From Candidatus Omnitrophota bacterium (lineage in GTDB: Bacteria; Omnitrophota; Gorgyraeia; Tantalellales; Tantalellaceae): a stretch of DNA of 64,000 nucleotides. A program made the translations under genes and the position numbers. The stretch is taken from NCBI GenBank assembly GCA_034723315.1, contig JAYEOV010000035.1, forward strand, positions 8,329 to 72,328, given 5' to 3'. Below, one piece after another: positions 3,444 through 48,921 of this stretch (position 1 is the stretch's first letter; each line of letters starts with the position of its first letter). A model generated the notes under the pieces. It was not told where the DNA came from, ran no database searches, and saw only the letters and a list, made by a program, of their open reading frames with translations.

Positions 3444-6158
3444 TTATTTTTTCTCCTTGAGCTCTATCAAGGCCTCTCTTGCGCCAAGGCATAGCGCTTC
3501 ATAACCATCTTTAGCGCCCGATTTATAGCCCTCTTTTTCCATGTCTTCGGGATCCAGGGCCTTGCCAAATCTTACTTTTATTGGATGACGTTTGGGGAAT
3601 TTAGACGTTCTTGGCCAGGCCTGATATGTTCCTTCTAATACAACCGGCACGAGTTTTGCTTTTGACTCCTTTGCCAGAATACCGAATCCTTTCTTGAACT
3701 CGTTTATATTTCCGTTCAGCGTGCGTAGACCTTCCGGGAACAGGCACAAATTTCTGCCTTTCTTCAGCACATAATAACAACTTCTCAGGGCCTCCAAAAA
3801 GTGTGAATAAAAATCAAGAGGGATAATTCTTCCTATTTTTATAAGGTTACGGATGATGGGAACAGCAAAATACGGCCTGAAACCAACAAAAAACAGATCC
3901 AATTTAGGAAAATTGGGCAAAGAAGTCGCGACAAGAAACCCATCCAGATAGCTTGTATGGTTTACGTATAATATATACGGGCCGCTTTCGGGGACATTAT
4001 TTCTTCCTTCCACTTTCATGCTGAAAAATATCTTGAAGATCATATAAAACGGGCAAAGAAACAGGAAACAACCCAGCCATACTACGAATCCCGGCTTTAA
4101 ATCGATCTTGTCCAGATTTTCCTTTTTGGGCAGGAGCTGAAAAAGAGTTTTCCAATATTCAGGACCGGAAGTTATCACCCTTTCAGATACAGGCAAAGCT
4201 TCCGTTTCCTCTTTTAAAAGCGCTTCAATGCCCACGATCAGGTCTTTAACGGTAAATGCCCTCCCGACGATCTCAGCCTCTATTTTTATGCCAAATATTT
4301 TTTCAAGACCTGAAGCAAGCTCGATCCTGCCCAAAGAATCTATACCAAGGTCAAGTTCCAGTAAGTCTCCCGGTGTAACGGCCCTCTTGATGGCGGTCTG
4401 TTCTTCAAGATAACTCATTATTTTCCTGCCGGCCCCCGACTCCATTATTTCCAGATCTTCTTTTGACAATTCCCCTGGTCCCGGAACGTATTCTTTTTCT
4501 TCAAGTATTTTAGGCGTATAAAGCTCTTTAACAGCGAACCTCTGGATCTTACCCAGGACAGTGCGCGGAAGCTTTTCAAGCGTTATAAAAAACCCCATGA
4601 TCCTTTTATGAGGAGGCAAGCTTCTCGAAACATTATCGAGTCTTTCCTTGATCACGCTCCTTAAGTTTATTTCTCCGAATTTTCTGAAAAACTCGAGATC
4701 GGGCACAATGACAGCCCACAATACCAGGTTCTCTTCCAGGCCTTTTTTAGCGGGAAGTTCGAATACGCACATCTCCTTAACCGGCGTGTGACTGGAATAT
4801 GCTTCTTCTATTTCTTCAGGGTAAATATTCAAACCAGAACTTAAGACAACCACCTCTTTTAACCTCCCGGTTAAAAATAAATACCCGTCTTTATCAATAT
4901 ACCCGAGATCGCCCGTATGAAACCATCCGTCTTTTATGGCCTGCGCGGTCAGGTCTTTTCTCCGATAATACCCTTCCATGACATTCGGCCCGCGCACGAT
5001 AACTTCGCCTGTGCCTTTTTCGTCTTTATCTATGATCTTTAATTCTACATCGGGGATAGGCAGCCCGACTGAGCCGATCTTCGGCTTCTTTAAAGGATTT
5101 GCGGTCAGGATCGGCGATGTCTCAGTTAGACCGTAACCCTCTAATATCGTAAACCCGAGTTTAAACAACATTCTCTCGGCGCCTTCATCAAGTTTCGCGC
5201 CTCCACTCATAAACAGCCGCATTGACCTTCCGAACCTCCTGTGAATACCATAAAGAAAATAACGCGGCAAATTAATGCCTGTCTTCACCCTGATCTTATA
5301 TAAAACTTCAAGGGTTAGCCTGAACAGAAGATCAACCGGAAAAGGTATTCTTTTTAACGTCTCTGTGATCTTTTGATAAAACGAGTAAAAAATCTGCGGC
5401 ACGGCAACAAAAACGCTCGCGTTCAGTTGTCTCATGGCTTCCAGAACGGTTTCTCCCCGCATGGTCCCGGGATATATAATCCTGCCGCCGCACAAGAACG
5501 GAAATAACATTGTCACCGTTAACGAATAAGCGTGATGCAGGGGAAGGATCGAGATAACGCTATCATCCGGCGTAACCAGGTTCAGCCTGTGTAGAGAATC
5601 GCAGTTAGCGAACAAATTCCTGTGCGAGAGCACAACGCCTTTTGGTTCAGCGGTAGTGCCTGAAGTGTATAAAATACACGCCGGATCATCGCCTCCGATC
5701 TCCACATCCTTAATCTGTTCGGGCGACCTTTTTACCGCGTCCTTAAACGCGTCTGAATCCACAGAAATGACCCTTTTTATTGATGGACATCTCCGGCAGA
5801 TCTCTTCCATTAATCTGAAGGAGGACTCGCCCGTAAAAGCAAATTTGCATTCAGAATCCTTTAAAATATTCTCGACCTCTTCCCGGGTAGATTCGGGATT
5901 GAGGGGGATAGAAATCGCTCCCGCGGATACTGTGGAGAAAAATATCAATGGCCATTCGGGTCTGTTATCCAGCAAAATGGCGATCTTATCATGTTTCTTA
6001 ATGCCCTCTTCTAATAAAGACGCAGAGAGCCTTTCCACGTCTTGTCTGAATTCGCCAAAAAGAACATCGCCCCATTCATTACCTTTATTGTATTGAATTG
6101 CCACTCTGCCGGAATATTCTAACGAGATAGCTTTAAACTTGTCTCTTAAATTCCGCAC
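3444..6158 (-). CDS. Tri-domain fusion: long-chain acyl-CoA/ACP synthetase (AMP-binding) - acyl carrier (PP-binding) domain - PlsC-type lysophospholipid acyltransferase
   Basis: AMP-binding signature YTSGTTAEPKG, GYGLTETS, TGDLG; carrier domain LGIDSLGRIEL; hydrophobic segment, then NHTSYLDG (HX4D) and FPEGLRT acyltransferase blocks. Confidence 0.75.
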   Translation of the reverse strand: MRNLRDKFKAISLEYSGRVAIQYNKGNEWGDVLFGEFRQDVERLSASLLEEGIKKHDKIAILLDNRPEWPLIFFSTVSAGAISIPLNPESTREEVENILKDSECKFAFTGESSFRLMEEICRRCPSIKRVISVDSDAFKDAVKRSPEQIKDVEIGGDDPACILYTSGTTAEPKGVVLSHRNLFANCDSLHRLNLVTPDDSVISILPLHHAYSLTVTMLFPFLCGGRIIYPGTMRGETVLEAMRQLNASVFVAVPQIFYSFYQKITETLKRIPFPVDLLFRLTLEVLYKIRVKTGINLPRYFLYGIHRRFGRSMRLFMSGGAKLDEGAERMLFKLGFTILEGYGLTETSPILTANPLKKPKIGSVGLPIPDVELKIIDKDEKGTGEVIVRGPNVMEGYYRRKDLTAQAIKDGWFHTGDLGYIDKDGYLFLTGRLKEVVVLSSGLNIYPEEIEEAYSSHTPVKEMCVFELPAKKGLEENLVLWAVIVPDLEFFRKFGEINLRSVIKERLDNVSRSLPPHKRIMGFFITLEKLPRTVLGKIQRFAVKELYTPKILEEKEYVPGPGELSKEDLEIMESGAGRKIMSYLEEQTAIKRAVTPGDLLELDLGIDSLGRIELASGLEKIFGIKIEAEIVGRAFTVKDLIVGIEALLKEETEALPVSERVITSGPEYWKTLFQLLPKKENLDKIDLKPGFVVWLGCFLFLCPFYMIFKIFFSMKVEGRNNVPESGPYILYVNHTSYLDGFLVATSLPNFPKLDLFFVGFRPYFAVPIIRNLIKIGRIIPLDFYSHFLEALRSCYYVLKKGRNLCLFPEGLRTLNGNINEFKKGFGILAKESKAKLVPVVLEGTYQAWPRTSKFPKRHPIKVRFGKALDPEDMEKEGYKSGAKDGYEALCLGAREALIELKEKK

Positions 6159-7025: not shown

Positions 7026-7553
7026 TTGTATCCTGCTCAAATTAATGATAAATTTGTATACATGAAGAACATATCATGGGGCAAAATAACCCTTGTAAGT
7101 ATAATTGCACTTACCGCGCATATAACCTGCTGTCTTTTCAATACACAGTTCGCAAAAATCACAATAGATTACTTTGCTTTTATAACAGGAATATTCTTAG
7201 TGACCGAAGGACTTTACAAGATATCCAGATCAAAAGCCCCTTTTTTCCCGGACCAGTTCCTGAGAGGTTTCCGGGTCGTGATCGGCTTCTGGATCTTCAC
7301 GATACATCTCTTTCAATTTATGAAGTACCGGGTTTTCTCCGCGCAGATAGCTGAAATTACAATAGATTATAAAGATTACTTTCCTTTTTTGGCAGGAATA
7401 ATTTTAGTAGCGGATGGTCTTTACAGGATATCCAGATCAAAAGCCCTTTTTTTCCCGGACCAGTTCCTGAGGATCATCCGCATTGTCATCGGCACATGTC
7501 TTTTCACAATACACCTTTTGCAATTCATGCACAGCGGCGCAACTTACTTTTAA
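7026..7553 (+). CDS. Hypothetical membrane protein with internal tandem duplication (2 x ~85 aa, 4 TM)
   Basis: Two repeats: ITIDYFAFITGIFLVTEGLYKISRSKAPFFPDQFLR... and ITIDYKDYFPFLAGIILVADGLYRISRSKALFFPDQFLR...; also visible at DNA level (7230-7265 vs 7435-7470). Confidence 0.4.
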   Translation: MYPAQINDKFVYMKNISWGKITLVSIIALTAHITCCLFNTQFAKITIDYFAFITGIFLVTEGLYKISRSKAPFFPDQFLRGFRVVIGFWIFTIHLFQFMKYRVFSAQIAEITIDYKDYFPFLAGIILVADGLYRISRSKALFFPDQFLRIIRIVIGTCLFTIHLLQFMHSGATYF

Positions 7554-15405: not shown

Positions 15406-15863
15406 GTTTTCCGAATTCTTCCCTTCTTTTTACCGTATTTCAATACTAGATTTTTTAGAATAATAAGTTATTTGCCTTTTTTTTGTGCTAACTCTAATAT
15501 ATTATCATAATTATTTTAAAAGTCAACAAAAATATTTACATATAGTGTATTTGTAAAAAATGAAATATTTAGCATGTTTAGGAGTAAAACTGCGGATATT
15601 TATCTAACTCAGTACTTCAGAAATATTAACAAGGAAAATATTGGAAGTTCAAAAAAACACATATTTATCTCATAACTTCTTTATTGCCCGATATTTAGGT
15701 TCGTAAGCCGCACTGAGGCATTCTTTGACAGACTGAAATCCTTGATCAAATGAAACAGCTATCTGAAGAAATGAAACTCGTCAATGCAAAGCTTTAAAAG
15801 TGGATTAGAATTACGGCCGCATTATAACTTTTTTATTAATAAAAATTGTTAACCTCGAATTGT

Positions 15864-15891
15864 TTGTTATGCTTGTACTAGGTGGGATTTG
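15864..15891. repeat. 28-bp direct repeat (left copy) TTGTTATGCTTGTAnnnnnnGGGATTTG
   Basis: 22/28 identity with 18478..18505; the right copy overlaps the 3' end of the amidase gene. Confidence 0.4.
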
Positions 15892-16181
15892 CATTATTGA
15901 ACACTCTCAAATTGGTCCAAAACTTTATGCAAAACGCGGAAGTCGGGTTAACAATCTCTTACCGTAATGAAGTAATGTTAAATTTACAATAGATAGAATA
16001 ATCCCCTTGTATATTAATAATGTTAAGGTATAGTTAATATGTTGATATTAAATGTATTTGGCTTTGTAATTTTTTACAAATTTATTAAAGGTTTGCTTAG
16101 AAGAAGAAAACAGCCTTGAAGATTTATTTTTTGGTTTTTAAAAAGTTTTTGAAAATGCCGAAACTAAAAAGGCGAATTACG

Positions 16182-17420
16182 ATGAACAAAACAAGAACAA
16201 AGAACAATGGGTTTGCCATGGCGGTCATGGCAGTAATGGTTGTCCTGGTCATGGCATGGGTGGTGATCATAACGCCTGTCCCGCGAGCGCATGCCGACGA
16301 ATGGGTAACGCGGCAAATATCGGATAATACGTATATTGACGCCGAGCCATCTCTTTATAACGGCACCATAGCCTGGGTGCACCATATACCCGCGGGAGAC
16401 TGGCAGCAACGTCATATCTACTACTGGGACGGGACCTCAACCACGCAGATAACGCCGTATGAGAAGTCGACCTACGAAGAGCCATCTCTTTATAACGGCA
16501 AGATAGCTTGGAGGGATGGTTATGTCTACTACTGGGACGGGACCTCAACCACGCAGATGCCGATTCCGGGGGGTGGTCAGCACTCCCCGTCACTTTATAA
16601 CGGCAAGATAGCCTACATTGTCGGAGGCGGTGTATTTGATGTCCACTACTGGGACGGGGGTACGGCTACAAATATATCTAATAATACGGCTGGTACTTGG
16701 TCCGGGTCCCCATCACTTTATAACGGCACCATAGCCTGGCAAACCTGGCAGGATGGTGGTTACGGTATCAACTACTGGGACGGGGGTACGACTACACAGA
16801 TATCCGTTAGTGGCGCCAACCCGTCACTTTATAACGGGACGATAGCCTGGGCGGACAATGGTATCAACTACTGGGACGGGGGTACGACTACACAGATATC
16901 CGTTAGTGGCGCCAACCCGTCACTTTATAACGGGACGATAGCCTGGGCGGGCAATGGTATCAACTACTGGGACGGGGGTACGACTACACAGATATCAGGC
17001 AGTGGCACCAACCCGTCACTTTATAACGGCGATATAACCTGGCAAGGCTCGGATGGTAATGATGATGAGATCTTTTACGCGCGGCTGGCGTCGGCGTGGA
17101 TAGGTGACGCGATAGACTCACTCGGCCTGGCAGGATACACAGAAGCGGAGATACTTGATCTTGCGGACCTGTTCAGTGGTCAGACTTCCGGTCTGGTAAA
17201 CAGCATGGACTGGACATACCTGGCAGGGAACCTTCCGGGAGATACAGGGGGCGAGGTCTATGACATAGGAAACAGCTGGGAATATGACGGTAAATACTAT
17301 ATCAAGCTGGGGAGCGGGCTTGAAGGAACCGGAGTACCTGAGCTGCCGGCAGGCGCGATACCGTTTATCGGTGCGATCTTGTGTTTTGGATTAAGACGGT
17401 TAAGACGTTTTCACAAATAA
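16182..17420 (+). CDS. Tandem-repeat secreted protein with variant PEP-CTERM-like sorting tail
   Basis: Signal peptide; ~9 repeats of PSLYNG[TK]IAW...YWDG[TG]TTTQI; C-terminus VPELPAGAIPFIGAILCFGLRRLRR (PEL-P + TM + basic cluster). Start at the internal Met (MNKTRTKNNGFAMAVMAV) instead of track 16116. Confidence 0.6.
   Translation: MNKTRTKNNGFAMAVMAVMVVLVMAWVVIITPVPRAHADEWVTRQISDNTYIDAEPSLYNGTIAWVHHIPAGDWQQRHIYYWDGTSTTQITPYEKSTYEEPSLYNGKIAWRDGYVYYWDGTSTTQMPIPGGGQHSPSLYNGKIAYIVGGGVFDVHYWDGGTATNISNNTAGTWSGSPSLYNGTIAWQTWQDGGYGINYWDGGTTTQISVSGANPSLYNGTIAWADNGINYWDGGTTTQISVSGANPSLYNGTIAWAGNGINYWDGGTTTQISGSGTNPSLYNGDITWQGSDGNDDEIFYARLASAWIGDAIDSLGLAGYTEAEILDLADLFSGQTSGLVNSMDWTYLAGNLPGDTGGEVYDIGNSWEYDGKYYIKLGSGLEGTGVPELPAGAIPFIGAILCFGLRRLRRFHK
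16764..17045 (+). repeat. 3 x 96-bp near-identical tandem DNA repeats inside the repeat-protein gene
   Basis: Units 16764..16859 and 16860..16955 differ at ~1 position; the third unit is diverged. Confidence 0.7.
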
Positions 17421-17462
17421 AACGGGAAAAACCAAAAGGATGAAAAATCCCCGTTCAAAAAG

Positions 17463-17492
17463 AAACCCGGGTAAGTGCCCGGGTTTCTTTTT
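17463..17492 (+). terminator. Rho-independent terminator
   Basis: AAACCCGGGTAAGTGCCCGGGTTTCTTTTT stem-loop plus T-run immediately after the repeat-protein gene. Confidence 0.6.
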
Positions 17493-17658
17493 GAAACGTT
17501 ATACCTCCCCTTCCCTTTTCTCCGGGACCCCTTCAGGTCCTTGCTCTACTCAGGGTAAACTCTGGCCCTTCCTACGGCTTCCGGAGCACCTTGAATACGT
17601 CTATTTCGCCTGAATCAAGCACAAAATACCCAAAATACGCACGGACTCCTGCCAGAAT

Positions 17659-17747
17659 GTTAGCGGAATGCGGCAGGTACTTTTAGCGAAATACGGCAGT
17701 TTTTATAGCGAACCGCGGCAGTTATCTGTGGCAGAATCCGTCAGTTG
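17659..17747. repeat. Four imperfect ~22-bp direct repeats (TTAGCGRAWNCGGCAGKT), iteron-like
   Basis: TTAGCGGAATGCGGCAGGTAC / TTAGCGAAATACGGCAGTTTT / TAGCGAACCGCGGCAGTTATC / TGTGGCAGAATCCGTCAGTTG, just upstream of the transposase remnant. Confidence 0.4.
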
Positions 17748-17775
17748 TCTCCCCCGGTAAGATCGCTCACCATAG

Positions 17776-18477
17776 TTGACGGAATATCGCTGAGGTAATA
17801 TTATCTTTTCCATAAAACTAAAAAAACCCGTCCTGCATTCGCCAAAACCAAAAGAAATATCCTGCCCCTACTGCGATTCGAAAGATATCATAAAAGCCGG
17901 GACAAGGAAGACCAGGTTCAGGAAAATACAAAGATACTTCTGCAAATATTGCCGCAGACAATTTACGGAAGAAAGATTAAAAGCTAAATCGTACCCGGCC
18001 CCGGCGAAAATAATTCTGAAGGCCAACTCACTTTATAATCTCGGGTACTCGCAGGAAATTGCCGCAAAGTTAATCGATCAACATTAGAAGAGGAAACCCC
18101 CGCAAAGAACGGTCAGCGACCGGGTGAACAAATATTCAAACCCCTGCGCGTATTAGACCTTAAGAAAAGAAGCCGTTAAGCTCCATAAGCCGCGGGAGAT
18201 AATACCGAGCGAAAAACTCCAGCACGGACAAGTCTATAATTTCAAGGTCCATCTGGCAAAGCTCGACCTCATCGAGAAAAGAAAAGTACTGCCGGAGAGA
18301 AAACTCAAAAGGCTAAGGGAATACCTGGAAAGGGTAACCGGCAAAGATCCAAAAGCCAGGCCTTTCCCCCACCATATATTTTCCATAGCGCCGGAAAACA
18401 CACATCAGGAAAAACGCGCCTCAAAACTGAGCGTAGAACTCCTGAAAATAACAAAACAGAGCAAGAAGAACTACGCT
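17776..18477 (+). mobile_element. Decayed IS-like transposase remnant (IS1/IS1595-type N-terminal zinc ribbon, then out-of-frame fragments)
   Basis: Frame 17776..18087 encodes ...CPYCDSKDIIKAGTRKTRFRKIQRYFCKYCRRQFT... with no ATG start. Downstream coding-like sequence (18180..18480) is in another frame, so no intact ORF. Confidence 0.45.
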
Positions 18478-18505
18478 TTGTTATGCTTGTAATTGTTGGG
18501 ATTTG
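18478..18505. repeat. 28-bp direct repeat (right copy)
   Basis: TTGTTATGCTTGTAATTGTTGGGATTTG; pairs with 15864..15891. Confidence 0.4.
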
Positions 18506-19092
18506 TGAGCTTTTTCTACTTGCTCTAGATTTGAGCTTTTTGCTATGTCGCCAGGAGATGTTATTGCCGCTTCGGGAACTTCCGGAACTATATCAAGATT
18601 ACCACCTCTGTAGAAAGCTTCGTAACAAAGCTCTGAACAGAAATAATCGCGTTTTATTTGCCAGTTGTTAGCCGCATTTCTAAGAGGCAGACCAATTTTG
18701 GCCAGGAGCTTTAAAACCCCGAGCCAGATCACGCCTTTGAGGTCATATTTCTTATTTAATTTGTCCACAAGATAGGATATTGTTCCATTCAAATTATATG
18801 TGTTCTCTTGCCTGACCCTGAAAACATCATACTCTTGCATTATTTTTCTTATGTTCCTCGCTCTTACTCCACTTCCATTTATTGCCTCTATTGCCAGATC
18901 CATATCCGGTGAAACACAAATAGCAACGTGTGAATACTTGCTGTTTGTGCCCCATGCGATCCACCAGGAAGCGGAAAACATTTTTTCGGCCTTAAATAAT
19001 AAAATGTCGCCGGCTTTCATGTTGATCTCCTGTTCTTTATAGACAGATCTCCCTACTTGCTTTGCTTGTTTCACTCGGGCTTGGATTGCCAA
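18481..19092 (-). CDS. Permuted papain-like amidase, YaeF/YiiX (C92) family
   Basis: Catalytic His in YSHVAICV precedes C-terminal Cys in YFCSELCYEAF, the permuted order typical of C92/LRAT-like NlpC/P60 enzymes. Confidence 0.5.
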   Translation of the reverse strand: MAIQARVKQAKQVGRSVYKEQEINMKAGDILLFKAEKMFSASWWIAWGTNSKYSHVAICVSPDMDLAIEAINGSGVRARNIRKIMQEYDVFRVRQENTYNLNGTISYLVDKLNKKYDLKGVIWLGVLKLLAKIGLPLRNAANNWQIKRDYFCSELCYEAFYRGGNLDIVPEVPEAAITSPGDIAKSSNLEQVEKAHKSQQLQA

Positions 19093-19243
19093 TTTCTTGT
19101 AGATGCCCGGTTTCCGGCTCCTGAGTATAACTCTAAGAGCCGCCCTTCTTCTGTGCTCGCGCAGTGTCGCGGGGATAACAGAGGGGTTGGACCCCGCAAT
19201 ATCGCAAGAAAAACTTTCCCAAGAATTTCATACCCTTTCGGTT

Positions 19244-19906
19244 TTATACTAAGAAGAAAAATCCTGCCAGCATCATTGCTACCTTTGCGGCGGTAGTGAG
19301 ACCTGTTACTACAACAGATCCGACTGTATCCCATGTTTGTTTTATGTTGTCCCTTCGCTTACGTTCACCTTCGACTGAGTAAAACGCGGTCAGTTGTATT
19401 ATTTCAAGTGTAGTCTTATTGTCGGCTGTTGAGGAAATTTCTTCATTTTTTTCCGTTTCCGGCGTGTTCGTAAAGGACCAGTAAACCTTTCCTGCGGCAT
19501 CCATTGTTTCTTCGGCATTTACATCGTCAGTGTCTTTTTTCATGCGTTCTTCGCTCAAGGAATTATAAAAACTCAGAAGTTCATCATCGGTCCATTTATC
19601 CAGCTCGACCTTTTTGTATGGCTTCTCCAGGACCAGTGATTCCTCTATAAGTTTAGATCGGCGGGACTTCAGGGCGATCATAAAGGCCGTTACCGTTATA
19701 TCTTTAGCGGTCTTGTCAATTTGTGTTTGCACAGGTTCATTATATATCCGGTGAAAGAGTATGAGCGCTTGTTCATCGTTAAGTCCCTTGAAATGCATCT
19801 TATTCACAGCGCTGCCCATATGACCATATTTCATGGAAGTGGCGGCACATCCGGACGCCCCGATACATATCAGGATCAACAGAAGTATTTTGATCTTCTT
19901 CAGCAT
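19244..19906 (-). CDS. Lipoprotein with C-terminal TM anchor (paralogue of 34972..35526)
   Basis: Lipobox GASGCAAT; shared motifs KVELDKWTDDELLSFYNSL and RRDNIKQTWDTV with the second copy. Confidence 0.5.
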   Translation of the reverse strand: MLKKIKILLLILICIGASGCAATSMKYGHMGSAVNKMHFKGLNDEQALILFHRIYNEPVQTQIDKTAKDITVTAFMIALKSRRSKLIEESLVLEKPYKKVELDKWTDDELLSFYNSLSEERMKKDTDDVNAEETMDAAGKVYWSFTNTPETEKNEEISSTADNKTTLEIIQLTAFYSVEGERKRRDNIKQTWDTVGSVVVTGLTTAAKVAMMLAGFFFLV

Positions 19907-26388: not shown

Positions 26389-26488
26389 TATGAAAGAAGT
26401 GATGAAGAAGAAGACGACATTTATACTTATCGCCGCCATGATCTGTTTTCAGATTAACGGCATGGTCGGGTTTTGCCCAGTACATTAC

Positions 26489-26606
26489 TAGAACCCATTT
26501 CATAACCCCGTTCGTTACGAGGCTGAGCGAAAAGGCCATTGACAAGGCCTGAGGGGCAAAATGCCCGGAAACGTAGCCGTTGCGCTACGTTGATGATATT
26601 TTGTCC
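26489..26606 (+). mobile_element. MITE-like element copy (left TIR + core, right end truncated)
   Basis: AGAACCCATTTCATAACCCCGTTCGTTACGAGGCTGAGCGAAAAGGCCATTGACAAGGCCTGAGGGGCAAAATGCCCGGAAACGTAGCC...GCTACGTTGA core shared with the 48573 copy. Confidence 0.55.
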
Positions 26607-33363: not shown

Positions 33364-33402
33364 CCGGTAGTGCGTATTATATCATACGCACCCCGCTTTT
33401 CT

Positions 33403-33700
33403 AGAAGCCATTTCATAACCCGGTTCGTAACGAGGCTGAGCGAAAAAGCCTTTAGCCCTTCGACTCAGGCCCCGGCTTTAGCCGGGGCCTTCGCTCCCTT
33501 CGGCTTCGCTCAGGGCAAGCAGGATTCCGCCCCACCCGGGCGGTAAGGGTGGTGCCCCGGGTTTGCCGGGGGCTCCACAAAGCCTGAGCGGCAAAAAGCC
33601 CGGAAACGTAGCCCCAATCTGCTACGTTGAGGACTTTTTGCTGCGAAAACGCAGCTAACGGCTTTTGCAGCCAGCCGCAGTAGAACAGGGTTTTGTAGTT
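33403..33700 (+). mobile_element. MITE-like element, long variant (~300 bp) with GC-rich insert module
   Basis: Left TIR AGAAGCCATTTCATAACCCGGTTCGTAACGAGGCTGAGCGAAAAAGCC..., internal CCGGAAACGTAGCC...CTACGTTGA hairpin, right end TTTTGCAGCCAGCCGCAGTAGAACAGGGTT. Confidence 0.55.
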
Positions 33701-36394: not shown

Positions 36395-36565
36395 CAACAA
36401 ACTTCCCTGCAGCTTGCTGCGGGGAAGTTTACCCCGCACCGAACCGCATTGGGTTCGGGGTTCTCGTCCCGTACCCAAAGTGGTACGGGAGATTCCGCCC
36501 TACAAGTGGAATCCCGCAGAAAAAGGAGCCGCGGACTCAAGTCCGCGGGACTCCATCCGATCAAC
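36395..36565 (-). repeat. MITE-related internal module, inverted orientation, no recognisable TIRs
   Basis: GATTCCGCCCTACAAGTGGAATCCCGCAGAAAAAGGAGCCGCGGACTCAAGTCCGCGGGACTCC matches the reverse complement of the insert in copy 42657..42838. Strong hairpin GGAGCCGCGGACTCAAGTCCGCGGGACTCC. Confidence 0.45.
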
Positions 36566-41420: not shown

Positions 41421-41467
41421 CCCCGTTCGTTACGAGGCTGAGCGAAAAGGCCATTGACAAGGCCTGA
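41421..41467 (+). repeat. MITE core fragment (CCCCGTTCGTTACGAGGCTGAGCGAAAAGGCCATTGACAAGGCCTGA)
   Basis: Identical to the core of copies at 26489 and 48573; no TIRs. Confidence 0.5.
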
Positions 41468-42606: not shown

Positions 42607-42656
42607 TAATCTTTTTTATAAAAAAGCCAATTTTAACCTTTATTATTATTGACTAT

Positions 42657-42838
42657 AACCCCGTTCGTTACGAGGCTGAGCGAAAAAAGCATTGACAAGG
42701 CCTGAGGGGTGGAGCCCCGCGGACTGAAGTCCACGGCTCCTTTTTCTGCGGGATCTCACCTGTAGGGCGAAATCCCGAAAACGCAGCCAATGGGTTTTGC
42801 AGCCAGCCGCAGTAAAACAGGGTTATGAAATGGGTTCT
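42657..42838 (+). mobile_element. MITE-like element copy (left TIR missing, right TIR intact)
   Basis: Core CCCCGTTCGTTACGAGGCTGAGCGAAAAAAGCATTGACAAGGCCTGAGG, GC-rich hairpin insert, right end TTTTGCAGCCAGCCGCAGTAAAACAGGGTTATGAAATGGGTTCT. Confidence 0.55.
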
Positions 42839-43069
42839 AAAGAAGAACTGGAGAATATCTTTGACAAGCACAAAAAACTTTACACGGCTAAAGAAAAACT
42901 GGGGCCTGGACTTGCGATCATACAGGATATTGTGAACATGCACAAAGGAAAAATCTGGGCCGAAAGCAACCCCAAGAAAGGTAACAGGTTTATTGTAGAA
43001 CTCCCCAAAAACATAGCATCAAAAAGCTGCGCCCTTAAGTGGATTCACTCCTCGTCGTCCACTTTATAA
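42830..43069 (+). pseudogene. Sensor histidine kinase C-terminal fragment (HATPase_c G2 box only)
   Basis: ...ELENIFDKHKKLYTAKEKLGPGLAIIQDIVNMHKGKIWAESNPKKGNRFIVELPKN; begins exactly at the ATG within the MITE right TIR; the rest of the kinase is absent. Confidence 0.5.
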
Positions 43070-48029: not shown

Positions 48030-48581
48030 TTATATATTACGCCCCTCTTTTTTGGCCTTTATATATTCCGGAGGCACATTTTTTGCAAGGAATAGTTTTC
48101 CTTCCCTGTAGAACTTTATATCTTTAAGGGCCGCCTCTTTTGCCATTACCTCCAGAATAACCGGAGTCTGAGCATGCCGCATGCCGACCATGTATGCATC
48201 TTTCTCGTTCGAGCTGAGATGGACGAACTGCCTGCTCATGGGCTTCAGGCCTTCTGCAAGAATCTTTTCAAGATCTTCCGGAGATGTTCCGTGATAGAGA
48301 ACTTCCGGAGGTATTATACTTTCCGAGCCGGGCCGGACTTCGAGGGAATGGCCGTAAGTGGCCCTTATCTTTTTTGCCGAGACCTCAAAACGCCCTTTCG
48401 GTTCATTTTTTACGAGTTCAAAAAGGTCCTCTTCCTTAAACTTCCTGAATCTTTTCCTGAGGACCCGCAGGACATCGGCTAACGGGGCGTACCCACACCC
48501 GTCCAGCTCAAGATCCCAGCTGCCGGGATCATGACGAAGTATATATGACAGGAACTTGCTCAGTTTTATCTTAGAAACCAT
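48030..48581 (-). CDS. kptA: RNA 2'-phosphotransferase KptA/Tpt1
   Basis: SKFLSYILRHDPG...LDG.GYA N-terminus, YHGTS, VHLS motifs. The start codon lies inside the MITE left TIR. Confidence 0.75.
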   Translation of the reverse strand: MVSKIKLSKFLSYILRHDPGSWDLELDGCGYAPLADVLRVLRKRFRKFKEEDLFELVKNEPKGRFEVSAKKIRATYGHSLEVRPGSESIIPPEVLYHGTSPEDLEKILAEGLKPMSRQFVHLSSNEKDAYMVGMRHAQTPVILEVMAKEAALKDIKFYREGKLFLAKNVPPEYIKAKKEGRNI

Positions 48582-48752
48582 TTCATAACCCGGTTCGTAA
48601 CGAGGCTGAACGAAAAAGTCATTGACAAGGCCTGAGGGGCAAAATGCCCGGAAACGTAGCCGGTGCGCTACGTTGAGGACATTTTACCCCGAAAACGCAG
48701 TCAATGACTTTTGCAGCCAGCCGCAGTAGAACGGTGTTATGAAATGGTTTCT
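48573..48752 (+). mobile_element. Complete MITE-like element (180 bp) with 17-19-bp terminal inverted repeats
   Basis: Left AGAAACCATTTCATAACCC; right GGTGTTATGAAATGGTTTCT; core GGTTCGTAACGAGGCTGAACGAAAAAGTCATTGACAAGGCCTGAGGGGCAAAATGCCCGGAAACGTAGCCGGTGCGCTACGTTGA. Confidence 0.65.
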
Positions 48753-48921
48753 ATAGCTTGACACCTTGCCGTCTACCATCTGCTGGCCGCACGTCCTGCT
48801 ACATTGCTCGGCCAATTTTGTCAAATGTTGACAGGCTGACCAGGAATATAAATTTTCAAAAATTAGATATTAAAAATAAAGGACTTACAACAATAATCTA
48901 TTCGAAAAAGGCTATTCTCGG

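Follow-up and report, generated by a model that had tools for sequence, protein, structure and literature searches.

Two copies of a 29-nt repeat, a broken nuclease gene and its upstream iterons at the 3′ end of an amidase gene of Candidatus Omnitrophota: a possible scar of an old rearrangement

The DNA analyzed here is a stretch of 64,000 nt (64 kb) from a Candidatus Omnitrophota contig (JAYEOV010000035.1, positions 8,329 to 72,328; assembly GCA_034723315.1), hereafter referred to as the window. The locus under study is a 2,585-bp block (positions 15892-18476, about 2.6 kb) located between the two copies of a direct repeat. From left to right the block includes an AT-rich spacer that extends from the left repeat copy to the first gene (15892..16181; 290 nt, about 28-32% GC), a gene for a secreted tandem-repeat protein followed by a hairpin, a conserved non-coding leader, an array of iterons, a predicted promoter and a nuclease-family pseudogene; its genes are read on the plus strand. 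The neighbor on the left is a sensor kinase gene (1878 aa), and on the right the genes for an amidase, a 220-aa protein and a helix-turn-helix (HTH)-Fic protein follow each other, all of them, like the kinase gene, on the minus strand. The remaining open reading frames (ORFs) scanned in the window are ordinary transport and sugar-metabolism genes.

The left copy of the repeat (TTTGTTATGCTTGTACTAGGTGGGATTTG, 15863..15891) lies in AT-rich spacer DNA, about 457-458 nt upstream of the kinase start. The right copy (TTTGTTATGCTTGTAATTGTTGGGATTTG, 18477..18505) overlaps the 3′ end of the amidase gene, as had been noticed in an initial annotation of this DNA: its minus strand encodes the last seven sense codons and the stop codon of that gene (KSQQLQA*). 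The same annotation placed the pair at 15864..15891 and 18478..18505, where it is indeed found, one base longer on the left and hence 29 nt in length. The identity then given, 22 of 28, has to be corrected: the 28-mers differ at three positions (25/28), and the complete copies are identical at 26 of 29 nucleotides, which corresponds to a divergence of about 10%. As to the further copies that might have been expected, a degenerate search retrieved these two sites and no other, with no site at all in 100 shuffles, and no third copy was found on either strand of the 64-kb window when up to nine mismatches were allowed. No copy of the 29-mer was found in IMG/VR either, and among 154 fetched loci it gave a single match, a chance 11-mer. 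The similarity stops sharply at both edges of the repeat: when the two left flanks, and likewise the two right flanks, were aligned locally, the scores were no better than those of shuffled sequences. This alignment of the flanks gave no sign of homology extending beyond the copies, as would be expected had a longer duplication decayed or had a second amidase 3′ end been present. When the whole window was blasted against itself, the pair was obtained with an E value of 0.014. Taken by itself, the repeat is only moderately unlikely to arise by chance, and is suggestive, not compelling. A Xer/dif-like or integron attC-like repeat was also considered and rejected by eye, as dyad symmetry is lacking and neither the dif arms nor the attC core can be recognized in it.

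What gives the repeat its significance is the place where the right copy lies. The amidase gene (18481..19020, minus strand) encodes a permuted papain-like C92 protein of the YaeF/YiiX type (PF05708, Peptidase_C92; 179 aa), which is 100% identical to NCBI protein P0077, and its stop codon is located 4 nt inside the right repeat. The tail that follows SPGDI in this protein comprises 20 aa, while it is 9-12 residues long in 81 of 116 homologues, the mode being 10-11; the C-terminal tail is thus about nine residues longer than the family mode, and its repeat-encoded part lies beyond the end of most homologues. On the opposite side, the family homology of the pseudogene ends at 18477, which is the first base of the right repeat, and the repeat is unlike the DNA that is found in homologues after codon 204. 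Being unrelated to the sequence of the homologues past that codon, the repeat is target-side DNA and not nuclease-gene DNA. Furthermore, as a chance repeat need not start at the exact break of a gene, we take the repeat to be causally linked to the truncation of the nuclease gene. This bears on the simplest alternative, namely that the two copies match by chance and that the nuclease gene was truncated by an ordinary deletion ending just short of the amidase stop codon. Such a reading is in keeping with a window-level BLAST E value that is only 0.014 and with the absence of a foreign compositional signal in the block, and selection for an intact amidase would favor deletion endpoints just outside its ORF. 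It has to accept, on top of that E value, a left edge that equals the end of the family homology to the base, a coincidence that we estimate at about 1 in 10,000 for a chance repeat located at any place in the 64 kb, as well as the sharp edges of the repeat, and we consider it improbable.

The pseudogene (17812..18477, plus strand) corresponds to the N-terminal ~204 of about 345 residues and can be read in a single frame, its nuclease domain being absent. It is 61-67% identical to the relatives P0001 and P0002, and matches positions 4-204 of the 343 positions of a hidden Markov model (HMM) of the family (E=2.5e-73), with no match further on. The start codon has been lost (ATA at 17812-17814, where the closest relative, P0001, has Met) and two in-frame TAG codons, at 18085-18087 and 18154-18156, are aligned with Tyr in P0002, so that the 209 codons contain two nonsense codons, a lost start and no frameshift. 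Recoding of the two TAG codons was ruled out: TAG terminates 7 of the 51 long ORFs of the window, and as it is a normal stop there, the gene is a true pseudogene. The 3′ part of the gene with the C-terminal domain is absent from all six frames of the 64-kb window, as assessed by HMM search. The zinc ribbon is real (NF050000, 35.3 bits for a cut-off of 28) and confined to the first ~40 residues; NF033558 matches residues 4-48 only, with 26 bits for a cut-off of 100. The gene had initially been described as a decayed zinc-ribbon transposase. Both the zinc ribbon and the decay are borne out; the transposase is not, as the family has PF12705 and no DDE domain. What appeared as a dead transposase at 17851-18477 is, on sequence criteria, the front half of a predicted gene for an uncharacterized nuclease of zinc-ribbon, HTH and PD-(D/E)XK architecture. 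Two further observations concern the pseudogene and its relatives. A two-codon duplication occurs in frame at 18003-18014, which reads YPAPAKII where relatives have (Y/F)PAKI(I/V). A second family member, P0008, encoded by an internal ORF (gene 815-1450) of a 1512-nt ENA contig, has its stop at ...NFANQLA, seven codons beyond the point at which the window copy is cut, where the DNA-binding half meets the nuclease half.

The region preceding the pseudogene belongs to the same module. The conserved non-coding leader (17540..17660, plus strand), which includes AATCAAGCACAAAATA, aligns among the window and the family loci L001, L002 and L017. No RNA element was detected in the leader or spacer, since no Rfam match reached the gathering score and the leader folds no better than shuffled sequences (z=-0.08). 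The leader is followed by the iteron array (17661..17744, plus strand; TAGCGRAAYRCGGCAG), with copies at 17661, 17684 and 17706 and a degenerate one at 17729, spaced by 23, 22 and 23 nt; of the four 22-bp iterons originally listed, three are thus good copies and the last one is degenerate. A sigma-70-like promoter, TTGACG-17-TATTAT (17776..17804, plus strand; 10/12), is the best site in the region and is predicted to serve the nuclease gene. It stands at the place where homologues have TTGACA..TGCTATCAT. Upstream of the gene for P0005 (L001) there are five 22-bp repeats, TAGCGATATCTGTCAGG, and upstream of that for P0011 (L002) there are three; at both loci the array comes first, then TTGACA...TGCTATCAT, and then the start codon. 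When 80 loci were scanned (78 metagenome family loci, L001 and L002), 3-8 upstream repeats were found in 35. The repeats of these arrays are 22-25 bp long, frequently with a spacing of 25, 22, and their sequence varies from locus to locus. By sequence and position, the window iterons can be assigned to the standard upstream array of the predicted nuclease gene family. Because the same type of array stands upstream of family homologues, they do not represent an independent replicon, and domain scans revealed no Rep family match beside them. Most simply, they would be putative binding sites for the zinc-ribbon and HTH domain of the protein itself.

Considering these data, we propose that the repeats mark the two junctions of one old insertion or rearrangement, in the course of which the amidase 3′ end was duplicated, and that the scar it left can no longer move. 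We put this forward tentatively, as a reading with slightly less than an even chance of being right. The block would have lodged 3-4 nt behind the amidase stop codon, and the last 28-29 bp of the amidase gene would have been duplicated and would now flank it. The duplication may have come about through duplication of an attachment (att) core in an att-type exchange or through repair of a staggered break. A variant would fit equally well, in which a larger element was integrated first and a later site-specific deletion, from its att site to an internal pseudo-site, removed the end with the recombinase. The cargo of the block would consist of a native-type surface repeat-protein gene and the front 60% of the nuclease module, cut at the right repeat. 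If the block and one repeat copy are removed, what remains is the amidase gene, an AT-rich spacer of about 457-458 nt and the kinase gene, all on the minus strand, plausibly the ancestral order. The decay of the repeats (3/29) and that of the pseudogene seem to be roughly in step. Both the insertion with target duplication and the side that moved are what we infer from this arrangement. Whatever its origin, the block is not an autonomous element and nothing in it can work today, as it has no recombinase, the nuclease gene no longer has its start codon and catalytic domain, two sense codons of that gene are now nonsense codons, and the repeats have diverged by 10%.

Several findings weigh against the proposed insertion. 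Pfam and NCBIfam scans of all block ORFs revealed no integrase, transposase, recombinase or other mobility gene, the truncated nuclease-family pseudogene being the sole candidate, and no terminal inverted repeats were found at the block ends. The GC content is typical (51% in the repeat-protein gene, for a window mean of 46.8% and a range of 39-55% among genes), and the codon-usage scores of the repeat-protein gene and of the pseudogene are mid-range, it being the amidase side that is atypical. The three mismatches between the copies are clustered in the middle of the repeat (positions 16, 18 and 20), a pattern that is unlike simple neutral drift and unlike a tyrosine-recombinase overlap region, and a target duplication of 29 bp is unusually long for a transposase-type event. 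Contig scans with the amidase and with the kinase N-terminus, together with exact look-ups of the amidase, P0077, P0197 and P0198, found neither an empty site nor a second occurrence, close relatives being absent: the nearest amidase is 76% and the nearest kinase 48% identical, and neither of them is syntenic.

The same findings decide on the view that had been taken initially, that of an integrative element inserted at the 3′ end of a gene. The repeat and the 2.6-kb block that it brackets have stood; a recombinase and a foreign composition have not, the anticipated shift in GC and codon usage failing to flag the block, in which the repeat-protein gene and the pseudogene look native. In its full form this view takes the block as a still recognizable integrative element with att sites, an iteron replication origin and its own decayed transposase. 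Elements of this sort are classically recognized by direct repeats of which one copy lies on a gene 3′ end, and the block does contain cargo, a terminator and iterons, but genes for an integrase, a transposase or Rep are absent, the iterons correspond to the array that precedes the nuclease-family gene at many chromosomal loci, the family was not found among 2.9 million viral contigs, and the composition of the block is native. We regard this view as already largely refuted and scarcely credible.

Codon usage calls attention to the other side of the junction. Of 39 ORFs ranked by a leave-one-out synonymous score, the amidase gene and the 220-aa gene (18481-19906) are the second and third most atypical, and, one other gene excepted, their GC content at third codon positions (GC3) is the lowest in the window. 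These values point to the amidase side as the one that arrived later, rather than the block between the repeats. The nearest amidase relative (76%) lies in unrelated cassette islands. An amidase relative, P0078, occurs in identical form in two gene contexts within one sample (loci L011, L014 and L015), and its islands contain resolvase, PLD, TIR and DUF4917 genes, with the motif TTTATTATAAAACATCCTTTGAGGGGG after nearly every gene in a manner resembling a cassette array. The amidase, perhaps with the 220-aa and Fic genes, could then have arrived as a mobile cassette in a resident nuclease gene, the 3′ part of which it removed, the kinase gene, the repeat-protein gene and the nuclease module being older. 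The contrast between the atypical codon usage and low GC3 of the two genes and the typical block genes fits this, as do the cassette-like relatives, with P0078 in two contexts and islands that include resolvase, PLD and TIR genes. It leaves unexplained, however, why a copy of the amidase-end 29-mer is present 2.6 kb away, at 15863; moreover, neither a third repeat copy nor a displaced nuclease 3′ part is found beyond the amidase block, and the motif between the cassettes of the relatives bears no relation to the 29-nt repeat. On balance we consider such an arrival unlikely.

The topology of the locus evokes still another mechanism, a ‘suicidal’ integration of SSV type, in which a nuclease-family protein would have acted as the recombinase with the attachment site in its own gene, the gene being split between the repeats. 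The 5′ part of the gene does end at the right repeat, as this requires, and P0008 is internally truncated and ends seven codons past the same point. Read-through of the left repeat is in frame with ‘VQNFM’, which resembles the IQDFM of the family, about 17 to 20 codons downstream; in shuffle tests this likeness has a p of about 0.05-0.08. On the other hand, the highly conserved nuclease half of 139 codons is not recognizable after the left repeat, where there are only 290 nt of room, and HMM search, frameshift-tolerant profile-to-DNA alignment and anchored extension of the spacer following the left repeat all gave non-significant results for a nuclease 3′ remnant. In addition, both repeat copies have a stop codon in that frame and show no likeness to family codons 205-214, and no PD-(D/E)XK nuclease is known to act as a site-specific integrase. 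Hence, integration of this type appears very unlikely.

The other gene of the block (16182..17420, plus strand) encodes a secreted beta-propeller-type repeat protein of 412 aa with TIGR04275 repeats. It is 100% identical to NCBI protein P0197, from the same metagenome-assembled genome (MAG) as the amidase, and a paralogue that is 51% identical, P0198, is encoded elsewhere in that MAG. Three tandem units of 96 nt are present at 16764-17051, 99% and 83% identical to the reference copy. The PEP-CTERM-like C-terminal tail (VPELPAGAIPFIGAILCFGLRRLRR) consists of VPELP, a hydrophobic stretch and RRLRR; PF07589 and the NCBIfam PEP-CTERM model fail an E of 0.1 for this protein, several homologues have PF07589, and no exosortase or exopolysaccharide (EPS) locus was seen among the scanned window ORFs. 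One homologue, P0202, sits in an EPS locus without a nuclease gene. At the 3′ side of the gene there is a perfect hairpin with 18-bp arms and flanking runs of A and T (17454..17495), which looks like a bidirectional intrinsic terminator of the repeat-protein gene; an Rfam scan at this site gave terminator-like matches, all of them below threshold. A tandem-repeat protein with a PEP-CTERM-like tail and a terminator hairpin of its own, as described before, are thus both seen in the sequence.

The nuclease gene is of wider interest than the block in which it was found. A protein search retrieved 76 relatives, mostly of about 330-370 residues and many of them with PF12705; those annotated come from Omnitrophota, Nanoarchaeota and Aenigmarchaeota (DPANN archaea). 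In a HMMER scan there were 368 clusters at 50% identity with an E of 1e-30 or better, and a metagenome scan gave at least 551 family matches. PF12705 is matched by all 39 aligned full-length members, which have in common the nuclease motifs GHID, LDYK and QLxxY (QLTIY), and domain scans revealed no DDE, tyrosine or serine recombinase domain in the family. The AlphaFold model of P0002 is confident (pLDDT 86), and the best Foldseek matches of its nuclease half, all of them weak (E of 0.02 or higher), were AddAB, Cas4 SSO0001, RecB and MGME1. With PF12705 and these weak structural matches, the nuclease domain of the family is predicted to be a PD-(D/E)XK domain of the Cas4/RecB-like type. A literature search found no paper on the combination of zinc ribbon, HTH and PD-(D/E)XK domains. 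In about one-fourth of the family loci with enough upstream sequence, a large surface-type gene rich in codons for G, S, T and N lies directly upstream on the same strand, and the order seen in the window, with the tandem-repeat surface protein directly upstream, fits this pattern.

Several features of the family loci deserve mention as such. A giant surface protein with GNVGIGT repeats and a C-terminus reading ...GSVIIRLG is often encoded 200-300 nt upstream of the nuclease gene (L042, L045, L046, L048, L052, L065, L092 and others), and at L046, L048 and L052 repeated cassettes of the 3′ end of the surface gene surround the nuclease gene, interleaved with HicAB, MNT/HEPN and RelE-like genes. 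In the pair L070 and L071, an identity of 99% sets in 253 nt before the nuclease gene and continues to the right, the Gly-rich gene just upstream being different; in the pair L053 and L054, an identity of 95% begins about 250 nt inside the nuclease gene, and the zinc-ribbon end and the iterons differ. Such pairs hint that the DNA-binding end and the sites that go with it are exchanged as a module. Tandem nuclease paralogues are present at L030 and L067, two at each, and a second copy of the leader/iteron array lies downstream or upstream of the nuclease gene at L022, L023 and L052. At 14 loci (L083-L085, L089-L095 and others) a gene for a four-helix bundle follows on the same strand, in nine cases within 140 nt; by eye only, it looks like the 23S-rRNA-intervening-sequence/Avd type. 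At L004 (about 3450-3620) a small ORF containing Cys codons is located in a 1.3-kb spacer that separates radical-SAM and AAA_14 genes from the nuclease leader, and may encode a precursor of the RiPP type (ribosomally synthesized and post-translationally modified peptides).

Two candidate signs of mobility of the module were examined at these loci and discarded. The boundaries of near-identical copies (L023/L024, L036/L037 and L070/L071) turned out to be indels, a divergent neighbor or a hypervariable upstream gene, and the repeats that bracket the module elsewhere are heterogeneous, comprising second paralogues, leader copies and 3′ cassettes of surface genes. The comparison of family loci thus demonstrated neither mobility of the module nor a causal role for it in the variability of surface genes. 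A bolder idea is that the module is a genetic unit not described before, selfish or promoting recombination, in small-celled lineages of groundwater (Omnitrophota, DPANN and probably the Candidate Phyla Radiation), which would bind its own iterons, cut nearby DNA and drive rearrangement or cassette exchange in the adjoining variable surface-protein genes, the window block being the scar of one such event from a copy that has since died. We mention it as a speculation of low probability.

Apart from the 29-nt pair, self-BLAST of the window revealed a family of dispersed repeats, about 50-180 nt long and 82-100% identical, with copies in both orientations (26485-26602, 33397-33692, 36491-36558, 41421-41467, 42655-42850 and 48561-48753). 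It looks like an intergenic element of the MITE (miniature inverted-repeat transposable element) or REP (repetitive extragenic palindromic) type. There is also a pair of 158-nt repeats (7166-7322 and 7373-7529; 80% identical, 207 nt from start to start), located within or beside an unannotated ORF (7026-7553).

As for the meaning of these results, we view the locus itself as the small and now inert scar of a rearrangement, ordinary in kind and of little weight for the biology of the organism. More is to be gained from the family to which its broken gene belongs, as annotations of the ‘zinc-ribbon transposase-like’ type in Omnitrophota and DPANN metagenomes hide a sizeable, uncharacterized nuclease family. 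Its members are predicted DNA-binding nucleases with conserved upstream iterons, and recur beside toxin-antitoxin genes and genes for surface proteins that are large or hypervariable. Should the family promote local recombination or be mobile, it would be a new player in the genome plasticity of episymbiotic lineages that are hard to culture.

The block can be compared with several known systems. With the att-flanked islands inserted by tyrosine integrases, for instance those of the P4-like type, it shares an imperfect repeat of a few tens of base pairs, one copy of which makes up the 3′ end of the target gene, stop codon included, and the presence of cargo. It differs from them in that it has no integrase, is only 2.6 kb long, ends inside a broken gene and shows no compositional deviation, and in that the mismatches lie in the middle of the repeat rather than in its arms. 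In archaeal elements with SSV-type integrases, attP lies inside the int gene (PMC7253208, PMC8371274). The window resembles these elements in that the nuclease-linked gene ends exactly at one flanking repeat, like int(N). However, the repeat lies outside the family coding sequence and contains a stop codon, the protein is a PD-(D/E)XK nuclease and not a tyrosine recombinase, and no significant match to a C-terminal fragment is found at the other repeat.

A zinc ribbon of the CxxC...CxxC type followed by a helix-turn-helix is also found in IS1 InsA and in IS1595, in accordance with the NF050000 match and with weak matches to PF03811. The family differs from both in having a PF12705 PD-(D/E)XK domain in place of DDE, and neither terminal inverted repeats nor a target duplication of 8-9 bp are present. 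With the nucleases Cas4, RecB, AddB and MGME1 the family has PF12705 in common, and its aligned full-length members share the motifs GHID, LDYK and QLTIY. Unlike these nucleases, they have neither a helicase or CRISPR context nor the Fe-S cysteine cluster of Cas4, and the N-terminal zinc ribbon and HTH as well as the upstream iterons are specific to the family; the window copy itself is devoid of the nuclease domain.

Lastly, the iterons of plasmid Rep origins and the 22-bp TnsB sites at the ends of Tn7 are tandem repeats spaced by about 22 bp, that is, two helical turns, beside the gene for a DNA-binding protein. The arrays of the nuclease family differ from both in that no homologue of Rep or TnsB accompanies them and in that they directly precede the promoter of the family gene itself at chromosomal loci. 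Such a position would suit operator or autoregulatory sites at least as well.

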